The notes under the pieces: generated by a model
Seen by the model: the letters and a program-made list of their open reading frames with translations, nothing else
What the model was told of the DNA's origin: nothing
Databases searched by the model: none
Position numbers and translations under genes: made by a program
Shown here: piece after piece, positions 35,068 through 47,714 of the stretch
Numbering within the stretch: the first letter of the stretch is position 1
How the letters are laid out: every line of letters begins with the position of its first letter
Source: Candidatus Binatia bacterium
GTDB lineage: Bacteria; Eisenbacteria; RBG-16-71-46; SZUA-252
Length of the DNA stretch: 64,000 bases
NCBI GenBank assembly: GCA_035631035.1
Contig: DASQJL010000096.1
Location: forward strand, 1,234-65,233
Direction of reading: 5' to 3'

Positions 35068-35466
35068 TCAGCTTCGCCGCGGCGTCCGGACCATCGTCTC
35101 GAGCAGGTGCTCGAGGAGTGCGGCCGGGTCCGTGCAGGCGCCGGTGTGGACGGCCGAGGTCTGGATGACCGTGCTGCGCGGCGCGGTGAGCCAGCGGAAG
35201 CGCTCCCGCTTCGAGAGGGCCCCGATCGGTCCCGCGGAGGGGCCGCCCGCGCAGATCGCGGGGAGGGTCGCCAAGTGGGCGCGGATCGTCGCAAGGTCGG
35301 CGCCGGGGTCCAGCGCGAGCAGCCGGCCCTCGTCCAGCTCGATGCGGGCCTCCAGGAAGTCGCTCGCCGGGCAGGAGACGATCGCTCCGGCATTGATGAA
35401 CTCCTCCCGCTCCACCTTCGGGACCACGCGGACGATGGCGTAATCGTACGGGCTAGGCTCGGGCAC
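35068..35466 (-). CDS. DUF3037-domain protein
   Basis: 132 aa. The N-terminal YDYAIVRVVPKVEREEFINAGAIVSC matches my recollection of the DUF3037 signature (Y.VLR.VP.VERGEF.N.GV). Its start overlaps the kinase gene by 14 nt. Confidence 0.65.
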   Translation of the reverse strand: MPEPSPYDYAIVRVVPKVEREEFINAGAIVSCPASDFLEARIELDEGRLLALDPGADLATIRAHLATLPAICAGGPSAGPIGALSKRERFRWLTAPRSTVIQTSAVHTGACTDPAALLEHLLETMVRTPRRS

Positions 35467-36217
35467 GGATCGCCTCTTCCAGGAAGGGCCGCGGCGTCTC
35501 CAGGCGGCGCGCCAGATACTTCACGTAGGCATCGCGATGCTCGGCGGCCGTCGCGAAGGGTGCGTCGACCAGCCAGGTGTCGGGGACCAGCGAGACGATG
35601 CGCCGCAGCTCGTCCGGAGTGACCCGCTTGTCCAGCGCGGCATCGGCTTCCTCCATCCGGGAGGCCGCGGGAAGGAGCACGTGGTCGCGAATCATCGGGA
35701 AGGGATCGCGGCTCCGCTCCAGCCAGTGCTCCCACGTGTGGTGGAAGTAGAGCGCCGATCCGTGGTCGATGAGCCACGTGCGCCGGTGCCACACGAGCAG
35801 GTTGGTATTGCGTGGCGTCCGGTCGATGTTCGTGACGAAGGCGTCGAACCAGACCACCAGGGATGCGAACCCCGGATCCGGCTTCTCCGCCACGGGATCG
35901 AACATGATCGAGCCCGGCAGGTAGTCGAGCGCCAGGTTCAGCCCGCCGCTCGCGCGGATCAGGTCCTGGATCTCCGGGTCGGGTTCCGTGCGCGCGAGGT
36001 CGGGGTCCAGCTCCACGAACACGATCTCCGGAACGGGAAGCCCGGCGGCGCGCGCGATCTCGCCGCACACGAGCTCCGCGATCAGCGCCTTGGCGCCATG
36101 TCCCGCGCCGCGGAACTTGAGCACGTACATGCCGTCGTCGTCGGCTTCGACGATCGCGGGCAGCGAGCCTCCCTCGCGGAGCGGGGTCACGTAGCGCGTG
36201 GCCGCGACCGTGCGCAT
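35453..36217 (-). CDS. Short HipA-like (HipA_C-type) Ser/Thr kinase-family protein
   Basis: 254 aa. Gly-rich YVLKFRGAGHGAKAL. Catalytic-loop-like VTNIDRTPRNTNLLV, followed by LIDHGSALYF (D.H..N / DxG analogues of HipA). Confidence 0.6.
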   Translation of the reverse strand: MRTVAATRYVTPLREGGSLPAIVEADDDGMYVLKFRGAGHGAKALIAELVCGEIARAAGLPVPEIVFVELDPDLARTEPDPEIQDLIRASGGLNLALDYLPGSIMFDPVAEKPDPGFASLVVWFDAFVTNIDRTPRNTNLLVWHRRTWLIDHGSALYFHHTWEHWLERSRDPFPMIRDHVLLPAASRMEEADAALDKRVTPDELRRIVSLVPDTWLVDAPFATAAEHRDAYVKYLARRLETPRPFLEEAIRARA

Positions 36218-38184: not shown

Positions 38185-38568
38185 CTACGCGTCGCCCGTG
38201 GGAATGATCCCACGTCGCTCCACCATCAAGATCACGGTGCGCTCCGGGGCGCGCGTCCGGTGCACCACGCCCCTGGGCACCACGAATCCCTGCTGCGGCG
38301 ACAGCTCCACCGTGCGGCTCTCCAGGTCGATCAGCAGCCGGCCCTCCACCACGAAGAAGAACTCGTCCTCCTCGTCATGCTTGTGCCAGTGGTATTCCCC
38401 TCGGATCACGCCGAGTCGCACGACCGAATCGTTCACCTGGCAGAGGGTCTGGTTGTACCAGGGATGGGTGCAGGCGGCGGCGAGCGCGGAAACGTCGATC
38501 AGCTCCAAGGGCTCATAGCGCACGTCCATGTGCGTGTCGTAAGGGTAGTTCTTGGGGTCGTCGGCCAT
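38185..38568 (-). CDS. Cupin-domain protein
   Basis: Trimmed to ATG 38568. Cupin motifs GEYHWHKHDEEDEFFFVVEG and GFVVPRGVVHR. Divergent from lexA. Confidence 0.8.
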   Translation of the reverse strand: MADDPKNYPYDTHMDVRYEPLELIDVSALAAACTHPWYNQTLCQVNDSVVRLGVIRGEYHWHKHDEEDEFFFVVEGRLLIDLESRTVELSPQQGFVVPRGVVHRTRAPERTVILMVERRGIIPTGDA

Positions 38569-38628
38569 GCTCCACTCCTCGGGAAAAGGACAAGAACGGC
38601 TGAGGATACTCCTCGGCTGAGCCGCCCC

Positions 38629-38658
38629 CTTGACAACTGCACAAACGTTCACTATCTT
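38629..38658 (+). promoter_or_regulatory. lexA promoter with embedded candidate LexA operator (SOS box)
   Basis: cTTGACAacTGCACAAACGTTCAcTATCTT. -35 at 38630-38635, a 17-nt spacer, -10 at 38653-38658, dyad at 38638-38651. 26/30 identical to 41781-41810. Confidence 0.6.
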
Positions 38659-38669
38659 CCTTTTCAGCC

Positions 38670-39428
38670 ATGAAGAAGAAGCCCAACCCCAGCGGGGCCC
38701 GGGGAAAGCGGCCCCCCACGCGCACGCCCTCTCCCGAGGCGATCCTCTCCTACATCGAGGAGTCGCTTCGCGATACGGGCCGCCCGCCCACGATTCGGGA
38801 AATCGGAGCCGTCTTCGGGATCGCCTCCACCAATGGAGTCCGCTACCACCTCGATAAGCTGGAGCGGGAAGGCAGGATCCGGCGGGATCGATTCACCAGT
38901 CGAGGCATCGAAGTACAGTTGGCCGGCGGGCGCGGCGCGACGCATATGGACACCTTGCCCTCCATGTCGCCCGCGTTTCGCCGAGCCAACGTTCCTCGAG
39001 GGACTGTGGCTGGCGTCCCCGGTGGCCTTGAACGGGATCTCCTTGAAGTCCCCCTCCTGGGCCACGTCGCCGCCGGCGCGCCCCTCCTCGCCGAAGAGCA
39101 CATCGAGGACACCCTGACCCTCGACCCGGCGATGGTGCGGCCCGGCGGCAAGCACTTCGCCCTGCGGGTGCGCGGCGACAGCATGAAGAACGCCGGGATC
39201 CTGGACGGCGACGTGGTCATCGTCCGGCACGACACTCCCGTGAAGAGCGGCGAGATCGCCGTCGTGCTGATCGGCGACGAAGCCACCGTGAAGCGCTTCT
39301 TTCCGCGGCGCGACAAGCTCCTGCTATTTCCTGAAAACGAAGACTACGAACCGATCGAAGTGCGTCCGGCCGATCCCGACGTGCGGGTGGCGGGCAAGGT
39401 GGTGGGTGTATTTCGGAGGCTCGGCTGA
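38670..39428 (+). CDS. lexA: LexA repressor (with basic N-terminal extension and expanded linker)
   Basis: Winged-helix TIREIGAVFGIASTNGVRYHLDKLEREGRI. Cleavage site HVAAGAP. Ser in RGDSM and Lys in TVKRF. Confidence 0.92.
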   Translation: MKKKPNPSGARGKRPPTRTPSPEAILSYIEESLRDTGRPPTIREIGAVFGIASTNGVRYHLDKLEREGRIRRDRFTSRGIEVQLAGGRGATHMDTLPSMSPAFRRANVPRGTVAGVPGGLERDLLEVPLLGHVAAGAPLLAEEHIEDTLTLDPAMVRPGGKHFALRVRGDSMKNAGILDGDVVIVRHDTPVKSGEIAVVLIGDEATVKRFFPRRDKLLLFPENEDYEPIEVRPADPDVRVAGKVVGVFRRLG

Positions 39429-39724
39429 TGCTCCATGCGCGATCGTTTCCATCCGAGAGAGACGGCTACTTCATGATCGAGTCCATCCACGACCCCATCG
39501 AGGTCATCACCATGTTCTCCGGCGGAACGATGAAGCCGATCCGCTTCCGCTGGAAGAACAAGACCGTGCGCATCGCCAAGGTGACGGGGGACTGGGTCCG
39601 GCACGAGGGGGAGAACAAGGTCCACTACTTCGCGCTTCTCGCCGACAACGCGGACTACTACGAGATCCGCTACGACGCGCGCGAGATGACCTGGCAGCTC
39701 ACGCGGGTGTGGATGGAGGGGTAG
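39428..39724 (+). CDS. Hypothetical 98-aa protein translationally coupled to lexA
   Basis: The ATG overlaps the lexA TGA (TGATG). GGAGG lies 8 nt upstream. Ordinary composition (KPIRFRWKNKTVRIAKVTGDWVRHEGENKVHYFALLADNADYYEIRYD). I recognised no family. Confidence 0.6.
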   Translation: MLHARSFPSERDGYFMIESIHDPIEVITMFSGGTMKPIRFRWKNKTVRIAKVTGDWVRHEGENKVHYFALLADNADYYEIRYDAREMTWQLTRVWMEG

Positions 39725-40193
39725 CCCCGCTCCACGTCCACGAGCCGAGCAGGCGCTCACGCCGGCGCCCGGGCCAGCGGCGGAACTCCTCGGACGGAAC
39801 GAACCCGAGCAGGCTGTCGCAGTCCTGGCGCCGGATGAAGCGGACCCACCCCGACAGCGGTTCCCGAACGAGAACGACACGGCCGGCGAAGATCTCCTCC
39901 AGCGCTCCGATGACGGCGCCGAGGATGGCTCCATCGGACGCCGCGCCCCAGACCAGGATCTTCTCGGCGGGACCGGGAGGGACGCCGTCGTCGTAGGCGA
40001 TCGTCGCCCCCTCCTCGTAGAGGTCGGCGCGAAGCTCATGTCCGGGGCGGCCCGGCACCGGCAGACGGACCGACATGTGGACCGTCATGGAATCCACGCT
40101 CGGGTCCAGCTCCGGATGAAGGGCCCGTAGACGCGCGGCCAGGAGCGTCGCGACCCGGCGGGTCTGCTCGGTCAGGGTGAGCGCGTGCTTCAA
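39699..40193 (-). CDS. Hypothetical protein
   Basis: Trimmed to TTG 40193, which overlaps the HAD stop (TTGA). 164 aa, no motif recognised. The start is uncertain. Confidence 0.45.
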   Translation of the reverse strand: MKHALTLTEQTRRVATLLAARLRALHPELDPSVDSMTVHMSVRLPVPGRPGHELRADLYEEGATIAYDDGVPPGPAEKILVWGAASDGAILGAVIGALEEIFAGRVVLVREPLSGWVRFIRRQDCDSLLGFVPSEEFRRWPGRRRERLLGSWTWSGATPPSTPA

Positions 40194-40939
40194 GGGATCG
40201 CGCCCTCGTCGACATGCCCCGGGGCATGTCGCAGCTCGGACAGGCTGCGCACGATGCGATCGGGGCGTACGTCGCTGCCCGATGGGATCCCCGCGCCTCC
40301 TCGGTCGATCCAGATGGCGTAGATCCCGAGGCGCTGCGGGGCGGCGACGTCCCATTCGAGATTGTCCCCGGCCATCCAGGTCTCGTGCGGCGCGGCCTGC
40401 AGCTCGTCCAGCGCGATCCGGTACACGCGCGGATCGGGCTTGCCGTAACCCAGCTCCCCCTCGATCAGAACCAAATCGAAGAGCTCGGCCAGCTGAAAGC
40501 GCACCACCTTGCTCCTCTGGGCAGCCGCGGCGCCGTTCGTGAGGAGGGCCAGCCTGCGGCCGCTCTGCTTGAACCAGCGCACGGTCTCGATCGCATCCTC
40601 CAGCGGCTGGAGGCCCAGGTGCCGCTGGGCGCGATAGTGCTCCGCGATCTTCTCGGCCAGCTCCGGCGACTCGAGCCCGATCTCCACGAGCGAAGCGCGT
40701 ACGACCTCCCGCCGCGCGGCATCCAGGTCCAGGCGCCCCTCCCGATGGCGCTCGGGATCGGACCAGAACCACGCGCGCGTTTTCTCGATGACGGCGTGGA
40801 GCGCGGAGGGATCGACCGCGCCCAGCTCGTCGCGGTGGGCGCGGCAGGCCTCCAACCAGCAGTGGGAGACGTTGCCGCTGTCGTCGAGGATCGTGTCGTC
40901 GAGATCGAGGAGGACGGCCTTGGGAAGGGCTCCGGTCAC
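40190..40939 (-). CDS. HAD-superfamily hydrolase
   Basis: Motif I VLLDLDDTILDD. Motif II LLTNG. Motif IV-like MAGDNLEWD. Confidence 0.85.
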   Translation of the reverse strand: MTGALPKAVLLDLDDTILDDSGNVSHCWLEACRAHRDELGAVDPSALHAVIEKTRAWFWSDPERHREGRLDLDAARREVVRASLVEIGLESPELAEKIAEHYRAQRHLGLQPLEDAIETVRWFKQSGRRLALLTNGAAAAQRSKVVRFQLAELFDLVLIEGELGYGKPDPRVYRIALDELQAAPHETWMAGDNLEWDVAAPQRLGIYAIWIDRGGAGIPSGSDVRPDRIVRSLSELRHAPGHVDEGAIP

Positions 40940-40949
40940 GGGCGCCGTC

Positions 40950-41750
40950 TCAAGCCCTGCTCCCGCGCACGGCCCACGCGCGCGCGATCAGGTGGATCGA
41001 GCCGTCCGCCTCGACCGGCAGCCGCGAGCGGATTCGGTCCCGCAGCGCGCCCCGGCGCGCCTCTTCCAGCGACATGGCGTAGCCCGGCGCGGGGCCCTGG
41101 CCGCCGAGGAAGGGGGACCAGTAGTCGTCGAAATCGCGAAACACGGTCGGGACGTCGATCGCACGCGTCCGGACGTCGCTCAGGTGCCCTCCGGAAAATA
41201 CATCGGCGAGCGCCTCGGGGTGGCAGAGCGGGAATCGGGTCCCTTCGTCCAGCTCGCGGGCCGCGGGATCGAGGGCGATGGCGGCGTCCCAGAAATGCCG
41301 GAGCAGCTCCATGCGCCCCGAGTAGTCCCAGACATAGGCCGCGGCGACGCCTCCGGGGCGGAGCGCGCGAGACATCTCGCCCACGGCGAGTGCCGGCTCC
41401 GGAACGAAGTTGAGGAGCAGGGCGGAAACCGCTGCGTCCACCGAGGCGTCCTCGACCGGAAGCGATCGGGCGTCGCCCACCTCGAACGTCGCGACCGTGC
41501 GCTCCCCGATGCGCGCACGGGCGTAGTCGACGTACGCGGGGGAGGCGTCGATGCTCCGCACCGACCGGGGGCTGGAGCGATCGAGAAGGGTCTGGGTCAA
41601 GGCACCGGTGCCGCACCCGACGTCGAGCCAGGCCCTGCCCGGCGGCACGTCGAGCCACGCGAGGAATTCGGGGGCCACGCGACGGCTCCATCGGCCGACG
41701 AAGGGCTCGTAGAGGTCGCCCGCGGCCCAGACGTCTTCGGGGGTCATCAC
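40950..41750 (-). CDS. Class I SAM-dependent methyltransferase
   Basis: Motif I WLDVGCGTGALTQ. 266 aa. Divergent from dinB. Confidence 0.85.
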   Translation of the reverse strand: MMTPEDVWAAGDLYEPFVGRWSRRVAPEFLAWLDVPPGRAWLDVGCGTGALTQTLLDRSSPRSVRSIDASPAYVDYARARIGERTVATFEVGDARSLPVEDASVDAAVSALLLNFVPEPALAVGEMSRALRPGGVAAAYVWDYSGRMELLRHFWDAAIALDPAARELDEGTRFPLCHPEALADVFSGGHLSDVRTRAIDVPTVFRDFDDYWSPFLGGQGPAPGYAMSLEEARRGALRDRIRSRLPVEADGSIHLIARAWAVRGSRA

Positions 41751-41780
41751 GACAGTTTACTTGCCCCTTGCGGGCGCCAT

Positions 41781-41810
41781 CTTGACAACTGCACAAATGT
41801 GCAATATCGT
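41781..41810 (+). promoter_or_regulatory. dinB-operon promoter with embedded candidate LexA operator (perfect palindrome)
   Basis: cTTGACAacTGCACAAATGTGCAaTATCGT. -35 at 41782-41787, a 17-nt spacer, -10 at 41805-41810. The palindrome TGCACA-AA-TGTGCA lies at 41790-41803. Confidence 0.6.
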
Positions 41811-41882
41811 AGTCGTGTGACCTGCTTGAGGCGCCTCGCCAGTCCTCGATCGTGGAACGCAGAGCCCTGGGAGTGACCTTCC

Positions 41883-43154
41883 GTGCGGATCGTGGCGCAC
41901 ATCGACATGGATGCCTTTTTCGCCTCGGTCGAGGAGAAGCTGAACCCGCGGCTCGCGGGAAAGCCGCTGGTCGTGGGAGGGTCCAGGGACAGCCGCGGGG
42001 TCGTCTCGGCGGCCAACTACGCGGCGCGTCCGTACGGGATCCACGCCGGCATGCCGATTGCCGAGGCGGTGCGCCTCTGTCCTGAAGCGGCCTTCATCGA
42101 AGGCGACCCCAGGAAGTACGTTCACATCTCTCTCCAGATCCTCGACACGCTGAAAGACTTCACCCCCATCGTCGAGCCGTTCAGCATCGACGAGGCGTTC
42201 CTCGACCTGACCGCGGTGGAGCGTCTTCGTCCTCGAACGGAAGACGGCGACCACGAGACCTGCCTGAACGCGGCGATCCCGCTCGCCCAGGCGATCCAGC
42301 GCGCGGTGCATCGGCGCGTGGGGCTGACGGCCTCGATCGGGATCGCCCCCAACAAGTACGTCGCCAAGATGGGGAGCGGCCTCCGGAAGCCGAACGGGCT
42401 CACGGTGCTCTCGATCCGCCGCTTTCGCGAGATCTTCGAATCGAAGCCGGTCAACGAGCTGTGGGGGATCGGAGAGAAGACGGCGGCTTCGCTCGCCACA
42501 CTCGGCATCCGCACGGCGGGGCAGCTCGCCCGCTTTCCCCGGGAGTTCCTGACCTATCATTTCGGGCTGAGCGGCGATCACATGCAGGATGCCGCGCGGG
42601 GCGACGACGAATCCGAGGTGGTGCCCTACTTCGAAGGGGTGCCGGTCAAGTCGATGGGGCACGAGTACACGCTGCCGGAGGACGTGTCGGATCGCGAGCG
42701 CATCCGCGCGCACCTCCTCCGCCTGAGCGATCAGGTGGGCCGACGCCTTCGCGTCGACGGATACCTGGGCCGTGTGATCGCGGTGAAGTTCCGCAATGCG
42801 CGCTTCAAGACCACCATCCGCCAGCGCGCGCTGGCCGAGGTGACCGACGACGAGAACGTCATCTATGGCACCGCGTGCATCCTCCTCGACGAGAACTGGG
42901 ACGGAAAGCCGCTGCGCCTGGTCGGCGTCTCGGTGTCGGACCTCGTCTCGGCGCAGGGATTCCATCAGCACGATCTCTTCTCCACCGACGAGCGCCGGCG
43001 AAGAATGACCGAGGCTGCGGATTCGCTGCGGAACAAGTTCGGGGACGCGGTCCTGGTGCGGGCGGGAGCGCTGGATCATGGCGACACGCAGCGCCTCTCT
43101 CGTGAGGGAGCCAGTCGGAGTCTCGTCCGGGTCCTCGCCGACGAGCGACGATGA
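41883..43154 (+). CDS. dinB: DNA polymerase IV (Y-family)
   Basis: GTG start. IAHIDMDAFFASVEE, SIDEAFLDLT, IGIAPNKYVAKM, LWGIGEKT. Confidence 0.92.
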   Translation: MRIVAHIDMDAFFASVEEKLNPRLAGKPLVVGGSRDSRGVVSAANYAARPYGIHAGMPIAEAVRLCPEAAFIEGDPRKYVHISLQILDTLKDFTPIVEPFSIDEAFLDLTAVERLRPRTEDGDHETCLNAAIPLAQAIQRAVHRRVGLTASIGIAPNKYVAKMGSGLRKPNGLTVLSIRRFREIFESKPVNELWGIGEKTAASLATLGIRTAGQLARFPREFLTYHFGLSGDHMQDAARGDDESEVVPYFEGVPVKSMGHEYTLPEDVSDRERIRAHLLRLSDQVGRRLRVDGYLGRVIAVKFRNARFKTTIRQRALAEVTDDENVIYGTACILLDENWDGKPLRLVGVSVSDLVSAQGFHQHDLFSTDERRRRMTEAADSLRNKFGDAVLVRAGALDHGDTQRLSREGASRSLVRVLADERR

Positions 43155-44143
43155 GCGACCGACCCAAGATCGTGCTCGGCACCTCGGGATGGTCCTTCAA
43201 GGACTGGGTGGGGCCCTTCTATCCGCCCGGCACGAATCGGGCGCACATGCTGGACTACTACGCGGGCGAGTTCCAGGCGGTCGAGGTGAACTCCACCTAT
43301 TACCGGATTCCGCACTGGCGCACGTTCGAGGCGATCGCGAAGAAGACGCCTCCCGGGTTCGAGATCGTCGTGAAGACGCACCACGACATGACGCACCTGC
43401 GCTCCCGCGAGCCCGATCTCTACCGGGACTTCGAGCGCTCCATCCAGCCGCTGCTCGAGGCGGGGAAGCTCACGGGGATCCTCGCGCAATTCCCCTACGC
43501 GTTCCGGCGCACGCGTGAAAACGAGGAGTTTCTTCACGCCCTGCCCGACCTCCTCGGCCGATGGGTACCGCTCTTCGTGGAGTTCCGCCACCGGTCCTGG
43601 GTGGACGACGCCGTCTTTCAGGATCTCCAGAAGGAGGGCCTTGGCTACGTCAGCGTGGACGAGCCGGACCTTCCGGGCCTGGTCCCGCCGATCGCGCGCC
43701 GCACGGGGCCGATCGGGTACGTCCGCTTTCATGGCCGGAACAAGGAGAAGTGGTGGGGGGCCGAGTCGCGCGATCGAGGGGCGCCCGACGGGCCGGGAGT
43801 GAAGCGGGATGCCGCGAAGAGCGCAACGCCCGATGACAGGGGCAAGGCCCGCACGCGAGTCCGCGCCGGTGCGGACTTGGGCCCGCTCTTCAGCGGCACT
43901 CCCGACCATCCCGCCGAGGCGCCACCCTTGCCGGCTCCGCCCGCCTCCGAGCCGCGCACGTCCAGCACGCGCTACGACTGGTCCTACACCGAAGAGGAGC
44001 TGCGCGAGTGGATGGACAAGATCCGTGAGATGACGCAGCAGGCCAAGAAGACGTTCGTCTTCTTCAACAACTGCCACGTGGGGCAGGCGGCGACCAGCGC
44101 CAAGCTGATGCGGAAGCTGCTCGAGGGGGAGGGGATGCTGTGA
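43151..44143 (+). CDS. DUF72 (YecE-like) protein with a ~70-aa low-complexity insertion
   Basis: The ATG overlaps the dinB stop (ATGA). GTSGWSFKDWVGPFYP, VEVNSTYYRIP, EFRHRSW, RYDWSYTEEEL. The insert GAESRDRG...EPRTSST lies between the last two blocks. Confidence 0.8.
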   Translation: MSDRPKIVLGTSGWSFKDWVGPFYPPGTNRAHMLDYYAGEFQAVEVNSTYYRIPHWRTFEAIAKKTPPGFEIVVKTHHDMTHLRSREPDLYRDFERSIQPLLEAGKLTGILAQFPYAFRRTRENEEFLHALPDLLGRWVPLFVEFRHRSWVDDAVFQDLQKEGLGYVSVDEPDLPGLVPPIARRTGPIGYVRFHGRNKEKWWGAESRDRGAPDGPGVKRDAAKSATPDDRGKARTRVRAGADLGPLFSGTPDHPAEAPPLPAPPASEPRTSSTRYDWSYTEEELREWMDKIREMTQQAKKTFVFFNNCHVGQAATSAKLMRKLLEGEGML

Positions 44144-44168
44144 GCCGGGGCGCGAGCGGAGCGGGGAC

Positions 44169-46676
44169 ATGACGGGCGGGGGTGTCGCGGGGGGAAGCGA
44201 TTTCGTCCACGGGCCGGGACTCTTCGACGCCGAGCGCGGCGAGCGCGGGCCGCGTTCCGGCGCTCCCGAGACCCTGGACGAGTACGAGGCGCTCCTGCAG
44301 GCGCTCACCTCGCGGGACCGTCGATTTGTCCACGGTCCCTACGGGCTCCGCCGCCGTCCGAACGAGCTGGTGCACCTGGAGCGCCTCCCGGCCCGGCCCG
44401 CCGTGTACGGCGACCTCGCCGAGCCTCTGCCGCAAGCGCTCCAGGGCGTGCTACGCGAGGCGGGCATCGAACGCCTCTACACCCACCAGGCCCAGGCGGT
44501 GGATCTCGCGCGCTCCGGCGCGAACGTCGCCGTCGCAACGGGCACCGCGTCGGGGAAGTCGCTCGCCTATCACCTGCCGATCCTCGAGCGGCTCCTCCTC
44601 CAGCCGGGCGCCACCGCGCTCTACCTGTTTCCGACCAAGGCCCTCGCCCAGGACCAGCTGCGCGGCCTCCTGCGCTTCGCCGCGGCGTCTCCAGCGCTCG
44701 GGCGCGCGCTCGCGACCGGCACCTACGACGGAGACACTCCCGGCGAGTCGCGCCGCAAGCTCCGCGAGCGCGCCAACGCGATCCTCACGAACCCCGACAT
44801 GCTCCACCAGGGGATCCTCCCGTACCACTCCCGATGGAGCCGGATCTTCTCCAACCTGCGCTACGTCGTGGTGGACGAGATGCATACCTATCGCGGCGTG
44901 TTCGGGTCCCACGTCGCCAACGTGCTCCGACGGCTGAAGCGGATCGCGCGCCACTACGGCGCCGATCCCCGCTTTCTTCTGAGCTCCGCCACCATTCGAA
45001 ATCCGCGCGAGCTGGCGGAGTCGCTGGTCGGGGAGCCGGTCCGTGTCGTGGACGAGGATGGCGCGCCCCGCGGACCCAAGCTCTTCGCGTTCTGGAATCC
45101 CAGACATGCCGGTCCCGAGCAGGCGGGCGCGCGAACCTCCACGTCGATCGAAGCCGAGCGCATCCTGGTCTCGCTCATCCGGCGGCAGGTCGCCTCGATC
45201 GCGTTCACGCGGTCGCGCGTCTCCGCCGAGCTGATCTACCGCTACGCGCGCGAGCAGCTGGAGGAGCGGGGGCGCCGCCGCGCCGAGAAGGCCGAGGGCG
45301 GGGCGGTCCCGCTCGCCGACCGGCTGAGTCCCTACCGCGGCGGCTACCTTCCCGAGGAACGGCGCGCCATCGAGCGCCGCCTCTTCGACGGGGACCTCCT
45401 CGGCGTCATCTCGACGAACGCGCTCGAGCTGGGGATCGATGTCGGGTCGCTGGACGCGGCCGTGCTCGTCGGCTTCCCCAACACCATCGCGAGCACCTGG
45501 CAGCAGGCGGGGCGCGCGGGCCGCTCGCAGGCGCCGTCGCTCGCGATCGTCGTCGCCTACGACGATCCGATCGATCAGTACCTGATGCGCCACCCCGAGT
45601 ACTTCTTCGCGCAATCGCCGGAGAGCGCCGTCGTGGATCCTTCCAACCCCTACGTGCTCGCGTCGCACCTCGCCTGCGCCGCGCACGAGCTGCCGCTCTC
45701 GCGCGCCGACGAGGTCTGGTTCGGGCCGAGGGCCGAGGCGCTCGGGCGCCTGCTGGAAGAGGAAGGCACCGTCAAGTCGCTCGACGGCCTCCGTTACTGG
45801 TCTTCGTCCGAATATCCGGCGGGGCGGGTCAACCTGCGCACCATCTCCGACGACACCTACACCATCCTCGAGCGGAAGCCCGGCGCTCCGGAAGCGGAGG
45901 CGAGGACCCTGGCCACGGTGGACGCGATCAGCGCGCCGGAGCTGATCTACCCCGAGGCGATCTATCTGCACGAGGGAGACACCTGGTTCGTGCGCGAGCT
46001 GGACCTGCAGCAGAAGGTCGCCTACGTCGAGCGGCAGGAGGTGGACTACTACACGCAGCCGGTGCTGGACACGCGGCTGCGGCTGACCGAGACCCGCGAA
46101 ACGAAGCGCTGCGGCGAGTGCGAGGTGGGCCTGGGGACAGCGAACGTCTCCTGGGCCACCGTCGCCTTCAAGAAGATCCGCTTTCGGAGTCTCGATGCCA
46201 TCGGCTATCACCCGCTCGATCTCCCCCGCCTGAACCTGGACACGGTGGCGCTCTGGATCCGCCCCGACGAGTCGGCGCGCGCGGCGGTGCGCGTGAAGGG
46301 GATGAATCCCGCCGAGGGGATGTCGGGACTCCGCAATCTGCTCGTCACGCTGCTTCCGCTTCACGCCATGTGCGACCGGCCGGACCTGGGAGGCGTCCTC
46401 GACAGCGCGAACCTCGGCGAGCAGGCGATCTTCCTCTACGACCGCTACCCGGGCGGGCTGGGCTACGCGGAGCGCGGCTACGCCATCGTGGACGACCTCC
46501 TGCGCGCGACGCTCCGCATGATCGAGGACTGCCCCTGCGAGATCGGGTGTCCCTCGTGCGTCGGCCTCCCGGTCCTCCGCCCCGCGCAGCAGCAGGACTA
46601 CGACCTGCACGGCGGCTGGCCCATCCCGAACAAGGCCGCCACGGAGGCGCTGCTCCGGCGCCTTCTCGGGGCCTGA
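44169..46676 (+). CDS. DExH-box helicase with C-terminal DUF1998-type Cys cluster (MrfA/YprA-like)
   Basis: Motif I ATGTASGKS. Motif II VVDEMHTYRG. Motif VI QQAGRAGR. C-terminal CPCEIGCPSCVG. Confidence 0.85.
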   Translation: MTGGGVAGGSDFVHGPGLFDAERGERGPRSGAPETLDEYEALLQALTSRDRRFVHGPYGLRRRPNELVHLERLPARPAVYGDLAEPLPQALQGVLREAGIERLYTHQAQAVDLARSGANVAVATGTASGKSLAYHLPILERLLLQPGATALYLFPTKALAQDQLRGLLRFAAASPALGRALATGTYDGDTPGESRRKLRERANAILTNPDMLHQGILPYHSRWSRIFSNLRYVVVDEMHTYRGVFGSHVANVLRRLKRIARHYGADPRFLLSSATIRNPRELAESLVGEPVRVVDEDGAPRGPKLFAFWNPRHAGPEQAGARTSTSIEAERILVSLIRRQVASIAFTRSRVSAELIYRYAREQLEERGRRRAEKAEGGAVPLADRLSPYRGGYLPEERRAIERRLFDGDLLGVISTNALELGIDVGSLDAAVLVGFPNTIASTWQQAGRAGRSQAPSLAIVVAYDDPIDQYLMRHPEYFFAQSPESAVVDPSNPYVLASHLACAAHELPLSRADEVWFGPRAEALGRLLEEEGTVKSLDGLRYWSSSEYPAGRVNLRTISDDTYTILERKPGAPEAEARTLATVDAISAPELIYPEAIYLHEGDTWFVRELDLQQKVAYVERQEVDYYTQPVLDTRLRLTETRETKRCGECEVGLGTANVSWATVAFKKIRFRSLDAIGYHPLDLPRLNLDTVALWIRPDESARAAVRVKGMNPAEGMSGLRNLLVTLLPLHAMCDRPDLGGVLDSANLGEQAIFLYDRYPGGLGYAERGYAIVDDLLRATLRMIEDCPCEIGCPSCVGLPVLRPAQQQDYDLHGGWPIPNKAATEALLRRLLGA

Positions 46677-46709
46677 CGCGCGCCGCGCCGCGCGCCGGAG
46701 ACAGGCCCG

Positions 46710-47714
46710 ATGCTCTCCAAGACACTCCGGGACAGGATCGGGGGGCTGCTCCGGCAAGGCGCTCTGGACATTCCGGTCCCGCACGGGAACGGAGATTCGA
46801 ATGGCCATGCGGCCGCGCCCCCGCTGTTCACCCCCGAGCCGCGTCGCCACTTCGTCGCGACGGGGATCGAGGAGATCCTTCCCGGCGGCGTGATCGAGAC
46901 CGCGCAGGGGACCGTCTTCGCGCATGAGCGGCTCTACACCGATCTGGGAGAGCGTCCCGTACCCCTCCTCCGCCGGCTGGCCGAGCTCTGCGCCTACCCC
47001 GGGTGCGCGCCGGAGCGCCATGGAACGGGTCCACACTGGGTCGAGATCCCCGGCGTCGACTGCCCCTATCCCGCGCTCCCGGAACGCGCGCGCGCGCGCC
47101 GGCGCCGGCCGCGGGATCTGGCGGAGGCGACGGGCCTTCACGACCCTCCGGAGCAGGGGATGTTTCGCCGGTTCGGATACCGGCGCGTGCTCTACTTGGA
47201 CATCGAAACGTGCGGGCTCTCGGCGGCGCCGGTGTTCCTGGTCGGGCTCTGCATGGTGGGGGAGCGGAATCTCATCCTGCGCCAGCTCTTCGCGCGGGAC
47301 TACGCCGAGGAGCGGGCGCTCCTGGTGGAGCTCAAGCGCCTGGCCGGGGAGCACGACTTCCTCGTGACCTTCAACGGCAAGGCGTTCGACGTGCCCTTTC
47401 TTCGCGACCGCGCCGTGCATCACCGCCTCGATCCGCCGATCGCGATGCCCCACCTGGACCTGCTCTGGATGGCGCGCCGGCGCTGGAAGGATCTCCTTCC
47501 GGACTGCAAGCTGAAGACGATCGAATGGCGGGTGCTCCGGCGGAGGCGCGCGGGCGACGTGGGAGGATCGGAGATCCCCGGGCTCTACCACGACTACGTG
47601 AAGCGGGGCGAGGCCCACCGGCTGCTTCCGGTGTTCCATCACAACCTGCTCGACGTGGTCGCGATGGTGGAGCTGACGCCGGTCATCTTCGACCCGGATG
47701 TCGGGATCTACTAG
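46710..47714 (+). CDS. RNase H-fold DEDD-type exonuclease (MrfB/YprB-like)
   Basis: Exo I YLDIETCGL. Exo II TFNGKAFDVPFL. Exo III HHNLLDVVAM. Confidence 0.75.
   Translation: MLSKTLRDRIGGLLRQGALDIPVPHGNGDSNGHAAAPPLFTPEPRRHFVATGIEEILPGGVIETAQGTVFAHERLYTDLGERPVPLLRRLAELCAYPGCAPERHGTGPHWVEIPGVDCPYPALPERARARRRRPRDLAEATGLHDPPEQGMFRRFGYRRVLYLDIETCGLSAAPVFLVGLCMVGERNLILRQLFARDYAEERALLVELKRLAGEHDFLVTFNGKAFDVPFLRDRAVHHRLDPPIAMPHLDLLWMARRRWKDLLPDCKLKTIEWRVLRRRRAGDVGGSEIPGLYHDYVKRGEAHRLLPVFHHNLLDVVAMVELTPVIFDPDVGIY

Follow-up and report, generated by a model that had tools for sequence, protein, structure and literature searches.

What protein is encoded by the short open reading frame (ORF) that begins on the very stop codon of lexA in an uncultivated bacterium, and in what capacity would it serve the SOS response? 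The locus lies in a 64,000-nucleotide stretch of DNA, hereafter the window (assembly GCA_035631035.1, contig DASQJL010000096.1, positions 1,234 to 65,233 of the forward strand), from a genome labelled Candidatus Binatia bacterium and placed by GTDB in Eisenbacteria, and the ORF spans window positions 39428-39724. An original prediction, made from the sequence alone, had described it as an unknown protein translationally coupled to lexA. The analysis presented here points to a genuine gene whose product is very probably a standalone ImuB-C protein, whose expression is predicted to be tied to a LexA operator throughout the related genomes, and whose most likely role, at a rough probability of 0.55, is that of an SOS-induced accessory subunit or adaptor of a Y-family DNA polymerase, possibly together with RecA. 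The features that carry the argument are the following.

38630-38658, plus strand: sigma-70-type promoter of the lexA/imuB-C unit (TTGACA, 17 nt, TATCTT; 10 of 12 consensus positions)
38638-38651, no strand assigned: LexA operator (SOS box) TGCACAAACGTTCA, a variant of the clade palindrome TGCACAAATGTGCA, in the 17-nt promoter spacer
38670-39428, plus strand: lexA, 252 amino acids (aa), with LexA_DNA_bind and Peptidase_S24 domains (TIGR00498, E 6e-54, 182.7 bits against a cut-off of 110.95)
39415-39419, plus strand: Shine-Dalgarno sequence GGAGG of imuB-C, within the 3' end of lexA, 8 nt upstream of the ATG at 39428
39428-39724, plus strand: imuB-C, probable standalone ImuB-C/DUF6504 protein of 98 aa, with a 15-residue clade-specific N-terminal extension and an 83-residue beta-barrel core

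Coding status and start of the gene

The lexA TGA (39426-39428) and the imuB-C ATG share a base (TGATG), and a minus-strand ORF ending at 39699 overlaps the 3' end of imuB-C by 26 nt; these junctions, like the position of the Shine-Dalgarno sequence, had been read correctly in the original prediction. Chance ORFs are long and numerous in high-GC genomes, with dozens in this window (GC 69.6%), and imuB-C might be a spurious or non-functional frame of this kind downstream of lexA. Comparative data speak against such a reading. A protein search returned 98-aa homologues with 80-89% identity to the product, and a genome scan, limited to the close clade, recovered 31 loci carrying imuB-C at 77-98% identity, nearly all labelled as metagenome-assembled genomes (MAGs) of Candidatus Eisenbacteria. 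In every one of the 32 other loci read (31 distinct sequences) the frame is intact and exactly 98 codons long, the variable columns are distributed 41/25/77 over the three codon positions, and the pooled dN/dS is 0.16 (Nei-Gojobori; 31 other loci and the window) rather than near 1. The GC content by codon position (0.53/0.38/0.93) resembles that of the real genes of the window. Together with an above-threshold Pfam match, a confident fold prediction and synteny kept across phyla, all described below, these data led to the rejection of the spurious-ORF reading, which can be set aside with near certainty; as judged from this comparative evidence, and as originally proposed, 39428-39724 is a genuine conserved protein-coding gene.

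The choice between the ATG at 39428 and the internal one at 39473 can also be addressed. Related clusters mostly begin at the position of Met16 (ATG 39473 here), and the first 15 residues, absent from most of the family, therefore constitute a clade-specific extension. This extension is itself under purifying selection (dN/dS 0.18), and the ATG at 39428 and a 'cggagg' Shine-Dalgarno sequence are kept in all 33 loci, including those without lexA upstream, which favours 39428 as the start in this clade, in line with the start originally chosen.

Several database 'proteins' related to the imuB-C product (P0012, P0013 and P0016) are frameshifted or fused calls, P0016 for instance beginning as the LexA C-terminus and then switching into the ImuB-C frame; they are artefacts of gene calling at the overlapping junction or of assembly errors.

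Family identity

The original prediction found no recognisable motif in the product and left its family unknown, whereas the protein matches Pfam DUF6504 (PF20114) at 26.7 bits against a curated cut-off of 24.2 (E 6.9e-6), aligning residues 19-94 to positions 5-101 of the 103-position profile. Among 1.84 billion representatives, a profile search recovered 513 related clusters (50% identity), mostly of 80-86 aa; a 1346-aa repeat protein from this search (P0041) was rejected as a summed low-complexity artefact. Among 76 diverse relatives, 54 also match PF20114 and no other family recurs. In the alignment of these 76 sequences the C-terminal tryptophan (W89) is invariant (76/76), F30, P37, F40, W42, W56 and G61 are conserved as well, and columns 39, 45, 48, 51 and 93 hold basic residues in at least 60% of sequences. 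The conserved positions are thus aromatic, proline, glycine or basic, with no catalytic triad seen, and the product, of roughly 12 kDa and electrically neutral (pI 6.9), appears from its sequence to lack a catalytic signature.

An AlphaFold2 (AF2) model built on a 25-sequence alignment has a mean predicted local distance difference test (pLDDT) score of 87.3 and is all-beta, with six long strands across residues 14-97; it replaced an earlier, poor model (pLDDT 63.6) made from 10 near-identical sequences. Of the two kinds of search suggested alongside the original prediction, that with profile hidden Markov models (HMMs) thus supplied a family through Pfam, whereas that among structures returned no solved relative: the clade profile had no match at E up to 10 in a sequence search of solved structures, and fold searches with the AF2 model gave no neighbour in the Protein Data Bank (PDB). 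The absence of a PDB neighbour agrees with the 'novel fold' attributed to ImuB-C (PMC12926913).

The ImuB-C domain was described by Aravind et al. (2013) as an all-beta unit of about 80 residues with a conserved C-terminal tryptophan and basic residues (PMC3765255). Its prototype is Geobacter GSU0042, the ImuB C-terminus is a relative, and standalone versions are encoded mostly together with DinB and LexA (PMC3765255). The window protein matches this description in length, all-beta fold, tryptophan and basic columns. A tblastn search of 72,556 plasmids (7.3 Gb) with the window protein matched only Geobacter anodireducens pSD and Pelobacter propionicus pPRO1, the former as an 84-aa 'hypothetical protein' (ANA41728; tblastn E 2e-3, family HMM 71 bits) encoded directly after a LexA gene; this pSD protein served as the counterpart of GSU0042 in the Geobacter comparison. 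Next on pSD comes a Y-family polymerase gene, unannotated and apparently truncated, with 45% identity to the DinB polymerase of the window. The polymerase frame (L053, 3761-4606) is missing from the plasmid gene table; its alignment to the window DinB covers residues 2-297 only, and it may be a pseudogene.

The relation to ImuB itself was examined with Sinorhizobium meliloti pSymA, where the imuA-imuB-dnaE2 cassette was verified: ImuB is flanked by ImuA and by a DnaE2 scoring 1370 bits on NF004225. The family HMM matches only the last 90 residues of this ImuB, and DUF6504 is the sole Pfam family on that tail (residues 429-499), at a sub-threshold E of 0.0064. Alignment of the family against the last 109 residues of ImuB with hhalign gives a probability of 79% (E 1.5e-5) and is collinear in the IEVI, P..F.W+ and terminal tryptophan motifs. 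A protein search with the 76-sequence profile gave 33 matches and reached no ImuB proteins, a tblastn search of the plasmids with the window DinB was swamped by UmuC/DinB matches and gave no lead to ImuB, and the name 'DUF6504' was found in no paper in the literature search. Altogether, it is very probable that 39428-39724 encodes a standalone ImuB-C protein (DUF6504 family; GSU0042 prototype).

LexA operators and expression

Co-translation with lexA had been predicted to place the gene under the operator at 38638-38651, and this expectation is borne out, the promoter holding that operator being the only one of the unit. A consensus scan of 38400-42000 found just two sigma-70-like promoters, against 0.3 expected from shuffles, and no promoter-like or terminator-like site between the promoter at 38630-38658 and imuB-C; imuB-C should therefore be expressible only from the LexA-controlled promoter, as a second cistron. 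LexA-box-type sites number only two in the 64-kb window, and the second promoter and operator precede dinB, which is detached from imuB-C in this genome.

41782-41810, plus strand: second promoter, for the detached dinB (TTGACA, 17 nt, TATCGT)
41790-41803, no strand assigned: second LexA operator, the perfect palindrome TGCACAAATGTGCA, inside the second promoter

The lexA and dinB promoters (38626-38660 and 41778-41812) have in common a 28-nt core, TTGACAACTGCACAAA[C/T]GT[T/G]CA[C/A]TATC, with three differing positions; a duplication of promoter and operator apparently accompanied the splitting of the operon by three opposite-strand genes.

Related genomes provide the strongest regulatory evidence, as the box accompanies imuB-C, lexA and dinB in every arrangement among the 33 loci. 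Upstream of lexA, TGCACAAATGTGCA itself or a variant differing in one or two bases is present at all but one of the loci where lexA was seen, the exception being L039, whose contig begins about 30 nt before the LexA match, leaving the operator's place unreadable. In each of the 7 loci that separate imuB-C from lexA, a TGCACAAATGTGCA box precedes imuB-C itself by 71-124 nt, and detached dinB genes have their own LexA box in L016, L018, L019, L020, L024, L028, L032 and L039. This comparison shows, at the level of sequence, that imuB-C is translationally coupled to lexA and that its LexA operator moves with it when the genes are rearranged, and makes a strong comparative case for imuB-C being, by itself, an obligate SOS gene. 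In the window, transcription from the lexA promoter would accordingly yield imuB-C as the second cistron, translated by coupling to lexA; LexA would repress it, and DNA damage would induce it together with new LexA.

The LexA box of the clade, in the window and in loci L001-L043, is the palindrome TGCAC-N4-GTGCA. This type is reportedly that of Fibrobacter succinogenes LexA. Eisenbacteria are placed in the FCB group, which would fit a Fibrobacter-type LexA box. The lexA ATG (38670) lies just 11 nt past the -10 hexamer and lacks a Shine-Dalgarno sequence, unlike imuB-C with its strong GGAGG, and the lexA mRNA is for these reasons probably leaderless or nearly so.

Operon arrangement across Candidatus Eisenbacteria

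A lexA-adjacent homologue is conserved in related MAGs: in 20/31 Eisenbacteria genome loci imuB-C begins within a few bases of the lexA end and lies behind the same box. At the remaining loci lexA lies about 0.4 kb upstream (2/31) or 1.7-3.2 kb upstream (3/31) or is absent from the flank (4/31), and 2/31 loci are truncated by the end of the contig. In the two loci with the shorter gap (L041, 7565-8001; L043, 1499-1914), no new LexA box lies in the roughly 0.4 kb between lexA and imuB-C. On the downstream side, 13 of the 31 loci, L017 among them, have the three genes contiguous, with only 10 nt between imuB-C and the dinB start; in a further 10, dinB lies 0.9-6.5 kb downstream. The contiguous order lexA-imuB-C-dinB-DUF72-helicase occurs in L005 and L006. 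In the window the series is interrupted by genes on the opposite strand.

39699-41750, minus strand: three opposite-strand genes splitting the operon (by Pfam search), namely
39699-40193, minus strand: 164-aa ORF with no Pfam or NCBIfam match, its TTG start overlapping the stop of the HAD gene
40190-40939, minus strand: HAD hydrolase (Pfam)
40950-41750, minus strand: class I methyltransferase (Pfam)

The resulting arrangement (lexA, imuB-C, three minus-strand genes, and dinB 2.1 kb away) is common to the window and L016. L017, whose imuB-C is 97% identical to that of the window, lacks the three-gene block and has dinB 10 nt after imuB-C, and the split in the window is therefore recent and derived. 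Comparison of the loci thus indicates that the ancestral Eisenbacteria operon is lexA-imuB-C-dinB-DUF72-helicase, and that in the window three foreign-strand genes were inserted after imuB-C while dinB kept SOS control via the duplicated promoter and operator.

The 164-aa convergent ORF (39699-40193) was found only in the two closest relatives, L015 and L016, at 87% identity. Contigs bearing imuB-C (77-98% identical; most with lexA and/or dinB) also occur in MAGs labelled Omnitrophota, Bacteroidota, Limnocylindrales, Acidobacteriota, Hyphomicrobiales and Binatia (L015, L019, L020, L036, L037 and L043), and are most simply taken as mis-binned Eisenbacteria contigs. Upstream of the SOS locus, a HipA_2-like kinase (35453-36217) and a DUF3037 protein (35068-35466) form a two-gene unit on the minus strand (35068-36217) with a 14-nt overlap.

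The presumed polymerase partner and the genes downstream

The gene that adjoins imuB-C in L017 encodes, in the window, a DinB-type polymerase, and further genes follow it closely.

41883-43154, plus strand: dinB-type Y-family polymerase, 423 aa (IMS 1.7e-47, 161.5 bits; IMS_C 3.8e-29, 101.7 bits)
43151-47714, plus strand: genes downstream of dinB, apparently in the same SOS operon (Pfam), namely
43151-44143, plus strand: DUF72, its start overlapping the dinB stop
44169-46676, plus strand: MrfA-type helicase (Pfam domains DEAD, Helicase_C, WHD_HRQ1 and MZB)
46710-47714, plus strand: RNase_H_2-superfamily nuclease, MrfB-exonuclease-like (Pfam domain)

As read in the sequence, the catalytic motifs DMDAFFASVE and SIDEAFLD of the window DinB are intact and a clamp-type motif, QHDLF, is present, and the polymerase looks active. 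Its tail after QHDLF is DERRRRMTEAADSLRNKFGDAVLVRAGAL, of which MTEAADSLRNKFGDAVLVRAGAL resembles the RecA N-terminus, and the pattern DE+RR+MxEAxDSLRxxFGDxxLVRAG is kept in all Eisenbacteria DinBs. The tail is collinear with E. coli RecA residues 4-32, the oligomerisation motif, although the match is weak (hhalign probability 35%, E 4e-4). DUF4113, the Pfam family used by Timinskas and Venclovas to trace the motif of the RecA N-terminus (RecA-NT), has no match in the window DinB, and the tail of a distant cassette polymerase (L012) matches it at E 5.9e-4, below threshold. These tail matches are consistent with, and not proof of, the PolY/ImuB-C/RecA module of the same authors; recA itself is absent from the 64-kb window.

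The junctions from dinB through DUF72 and helicase to nuclease are overlapping or tight, and 41883-47714 has the appearance of a single operon under LexA control that links a translesion polymerase with an MrfAB-like repair pair. The names MrfA and MrfB are borrowed from Bacillus subtilis; Pfam gives only domain names.

Proposed role and competing explanations

The most likely role of the ImuB-C protein is, with a probability of roughly 0.55, that of an accessory subunit or adaptor, itself non-catalytic, of the SOS-induced polymerase of DinB type at 41883-43154, in a complex that might also include RecA. The analogies behind this role are the domain fused into ImuB and, at the level of function, UmuD'; the partnership with a polymerase is supported by the adjoining dinB in 13/31 loci, by gene order in distant contexts, and by papers that describe a lexA-imuB-C-polY module, with damage induction of one joint transcript in Geobacter (PMC6511836, PMC3765255). 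In other lineages, relatives 27-33% identical to the window protein occur in 11 distinct contexts, and in six of these a polymerase gene lies directly downstream, as lexA-imuB-C-polymerase or as imuB-C-polymerase with a divergent lexA, making the polymerase the commonest neighbour of the family across phyla.

Several observations weigh against this assignment. Seven Eisenbacteria loci carry imuB-C as a lone SOS gene; 3 of these still have dinB 3.3-6.5 kb downstream or lexA upstream, and 4 have neither in the flank. Among the distant contexts, 2/11, on unrelated metagenome contigs, have imuB-C with DUF72 and without a polymerase or lexA (L050, 2509-3789; L051, 1-3795, with L052), and 3/11 have no repair-related neighbour. 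The link to ImuB comes from one ImuB sequence, with sub-threshold or moderate scores, and the function of standalone ImuB-C proteins is listed as an open question in the literature (PMC8072749). The partner of ImuB-C may accordingly not be a polymerase alone. DUF72 may be a second recurrent partner, a candidate by virtue of following imuB-C in L050, L051 and L052 and dinB in the Eisenbacteria operon; in L051 a Lhr/Ski2-like helicase precedes imuB-C, DUF72 directly follows it, and the locus has neither polymerase nor lexA.

The main rival, which must be called somewhat unlikely, is the damage-recognition or general recruitment module proposed by Aravind et al. in 2013, in which the barrel would bind to DNA that is damaged or at a stalled fork, or to a shared hub, for example RecA or the alpha subunit of DNA polymerase III (Pol III alpha), and thereby bring several SOS repair enzymes to it (DinB, DUF72, and MrfA/B-like or Lhr-like helicases), the polymerase not being singled out. 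Such a module would accommodate the contexts just described, with imuB-C beside DUF72, with or without a helicase and without a polymerase (L050, L051/L052), the DUF72 and MrfA/MrfB-like genes of the Eisenbacteria operon, the lone SOS-boxed copies, and reported contexts with Ku/ligase, SplB photolyase and SRAP (PMC3765255). Against it stand the neutral charge of the protein and its lack of a recognisable nucleic-acid-binding fold, the modelling of the domain, which assigns it nothing but protein-protein contact, namely to ImuA and the DnaE2 PHP domain (PMC12926913), and the polymerase, which is still the commonest neighbour. A related and tentative idea, to be regarded as improbable, is that in Eisenbacteria ImuB-C is no dedicated polymerase subunit and acts as a general SOS adaptor on a common hub, recruiting whichever enzyme is co-induced, be it DinB, DUF72, or MrfA/B-like or Lhr-like helicases and nucleases. 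Candidates for that hub would be a RecA filament, at its free end, and the PHP domain of replicative Pol III alpha, the latter by analogy with the modelled binding of ImuB-C to the DnaE2 PHP domain. If true, an adaptor of this kind would explain the lone LexA-boxed imuB-C in 7/31 loci, the linkage of imuB-C to lexA oftener than to dinB, and the pairing with DUF72 or a helicase without a polymerase in other lineages.

The original prediction had placed the protein among SOS checkpoint effectors or LexA/RecA modulators, made stoichiometrically with LexA and acting on RecA filaments, LexA cleavage or cell division, with SulA, YneA and DinI as functional analogies. The tight lexA coupling kept in 20/31 loci and the several loci with imuB-C as a stand-alone SOS gene lacking an adjacent polymerase would suit such an activity, and RecA binding is conceivable, as AlphaFold models of the mycobacterial mutasome have the fused ImuB-C domain helping to bind ImuA, a RecA homologue (PMC12926913). 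Beyond being small and SOS-induced, however, the protein has nothing specific in common with these effectors: neither Pfam nor NCBIfam shows similarity to SulA, YneA, DinI or RecX, fold searches likewise give none to SulA, YneA or DinI, and there are no membrane or division-related features. The family is moreover homologous to a polymerase-complex domain, its context is one of polymerases and repair enzymes, imuB-C stands in an operon with the polymerase while lexA is divergent in the L008 lineage, and within Eisenbacteria lexA and imuB-C are separable, with imuB-C keeping only the operator. A SulA- or DinI-like identity was rejected on these grounds, and the broader checkpoint or modulator function is decidedly unlikely.

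Relation to known systems

The polymerase-subunit role places the locus beside systems already described. The closest is the operon lexA-imuB-C-polY, for which Timinskas and Venclovas (2019) cite Geobacter evidence of damage induction and of a single transcript (PMC6511836). The window shares with this 'GeoPolY-like' module a small all-beta protein (about 80 residues) whose C-terminal tryptophan is invariant, an SOS box, a Geobacter pSD counterpart at 71 bits, and a DinB that is 45% identical to the cassette polymerase. It differs in its host, Candidatus Eisenbacteria as opposed to the reported delta-proteobacteria, Deferribacteres, Planctomycetes and Clostridia, in the conserved 15-residue N-terminal extension that most of the family lacks, in the split operon with dinB 2.1 kb away under a duplicated promoter and operator, and in the operator TGCAC-N4-GTGCA and an operon that runs on into DUF72 and MrfA/B-like genes.

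A homologous domain, likewise LexA-regulated, forms the C-terminus of ImuB in the ImuA-ImuB-DnaE2 mutasome of Mycobacterium, Caulobacter, Pseudomonas and rhizobia. A 2026 survey by Timinskas and Venclovas models it as a novel-fold beta barrel that binds DnaE2's PHP domain and contributes to ImuA binding (PMC12926913). There the domain is fused to an inactive polymerase, whereas in the window ImuB-C is a separate protein paired with an active-looking polymerase; neither imuA nor dnaE2 was seen in the 64-kb window or in the flanks of the related loci. The Deinococcus cassette, likened here by description, also has a standalone 80-residue ImuB-C protein in a LexA-controlled operon, with an inactive Y-family protein, DnaE2, and imuB-C after the polymerase gene, as against an active-looking polymerase, no dnaE2, and imuB-C after lexA in the window. 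UmuD' of Pol V and YolD/YqjX of the Gram-positive PolY2 offer a functional analogy only, that of a small SOS protein beside a Y-family polymerase with a RecA-NT-like tail; they are not homologous, as the window protein has no Peptidase_S24 or YolD match and no SH3-like fold neighbours, and the ImuB-C barrel differs from the SH3 barrel of UmuD' and YqjX (PMC12926913).

Significance

The Geobacter lexA operon has reportedly been known since 2003 and the ImuB-C kind of protein from computational work since 2013; what is new here is the host phylum, the conserved 15-residue N-terminal extension, the split operon with its duplicated promoter and operator, and the continuation into DUF72 and MrfA/MrfB-like genes. 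The locus is thus a useful comparative data point rather than a discovery. For annotation, 'ImuB-C/DUF6504 family SOS protein' would be preferable to 'hypothetical'. The broader interest lies in the family itself, since standalone ImuB-C proteins are widespread SOS genes beside error-prone polymerases, and the fused domain is essential for damage-induced mutagenesis and the evolution of drug resistance in mycobacteria. The present locus extends the lexA-imuB-C-polY module to the uncultivated soil phylum Candidatus Eisenbacteria and offers a natural experiment, in which some 30 related genomes have separated the three genes in several ways while each detached gene has kept its LexA box, and in which the recurrent links to DUF72 and MrfA/B-like genes suggest partners beyond the polymerase.

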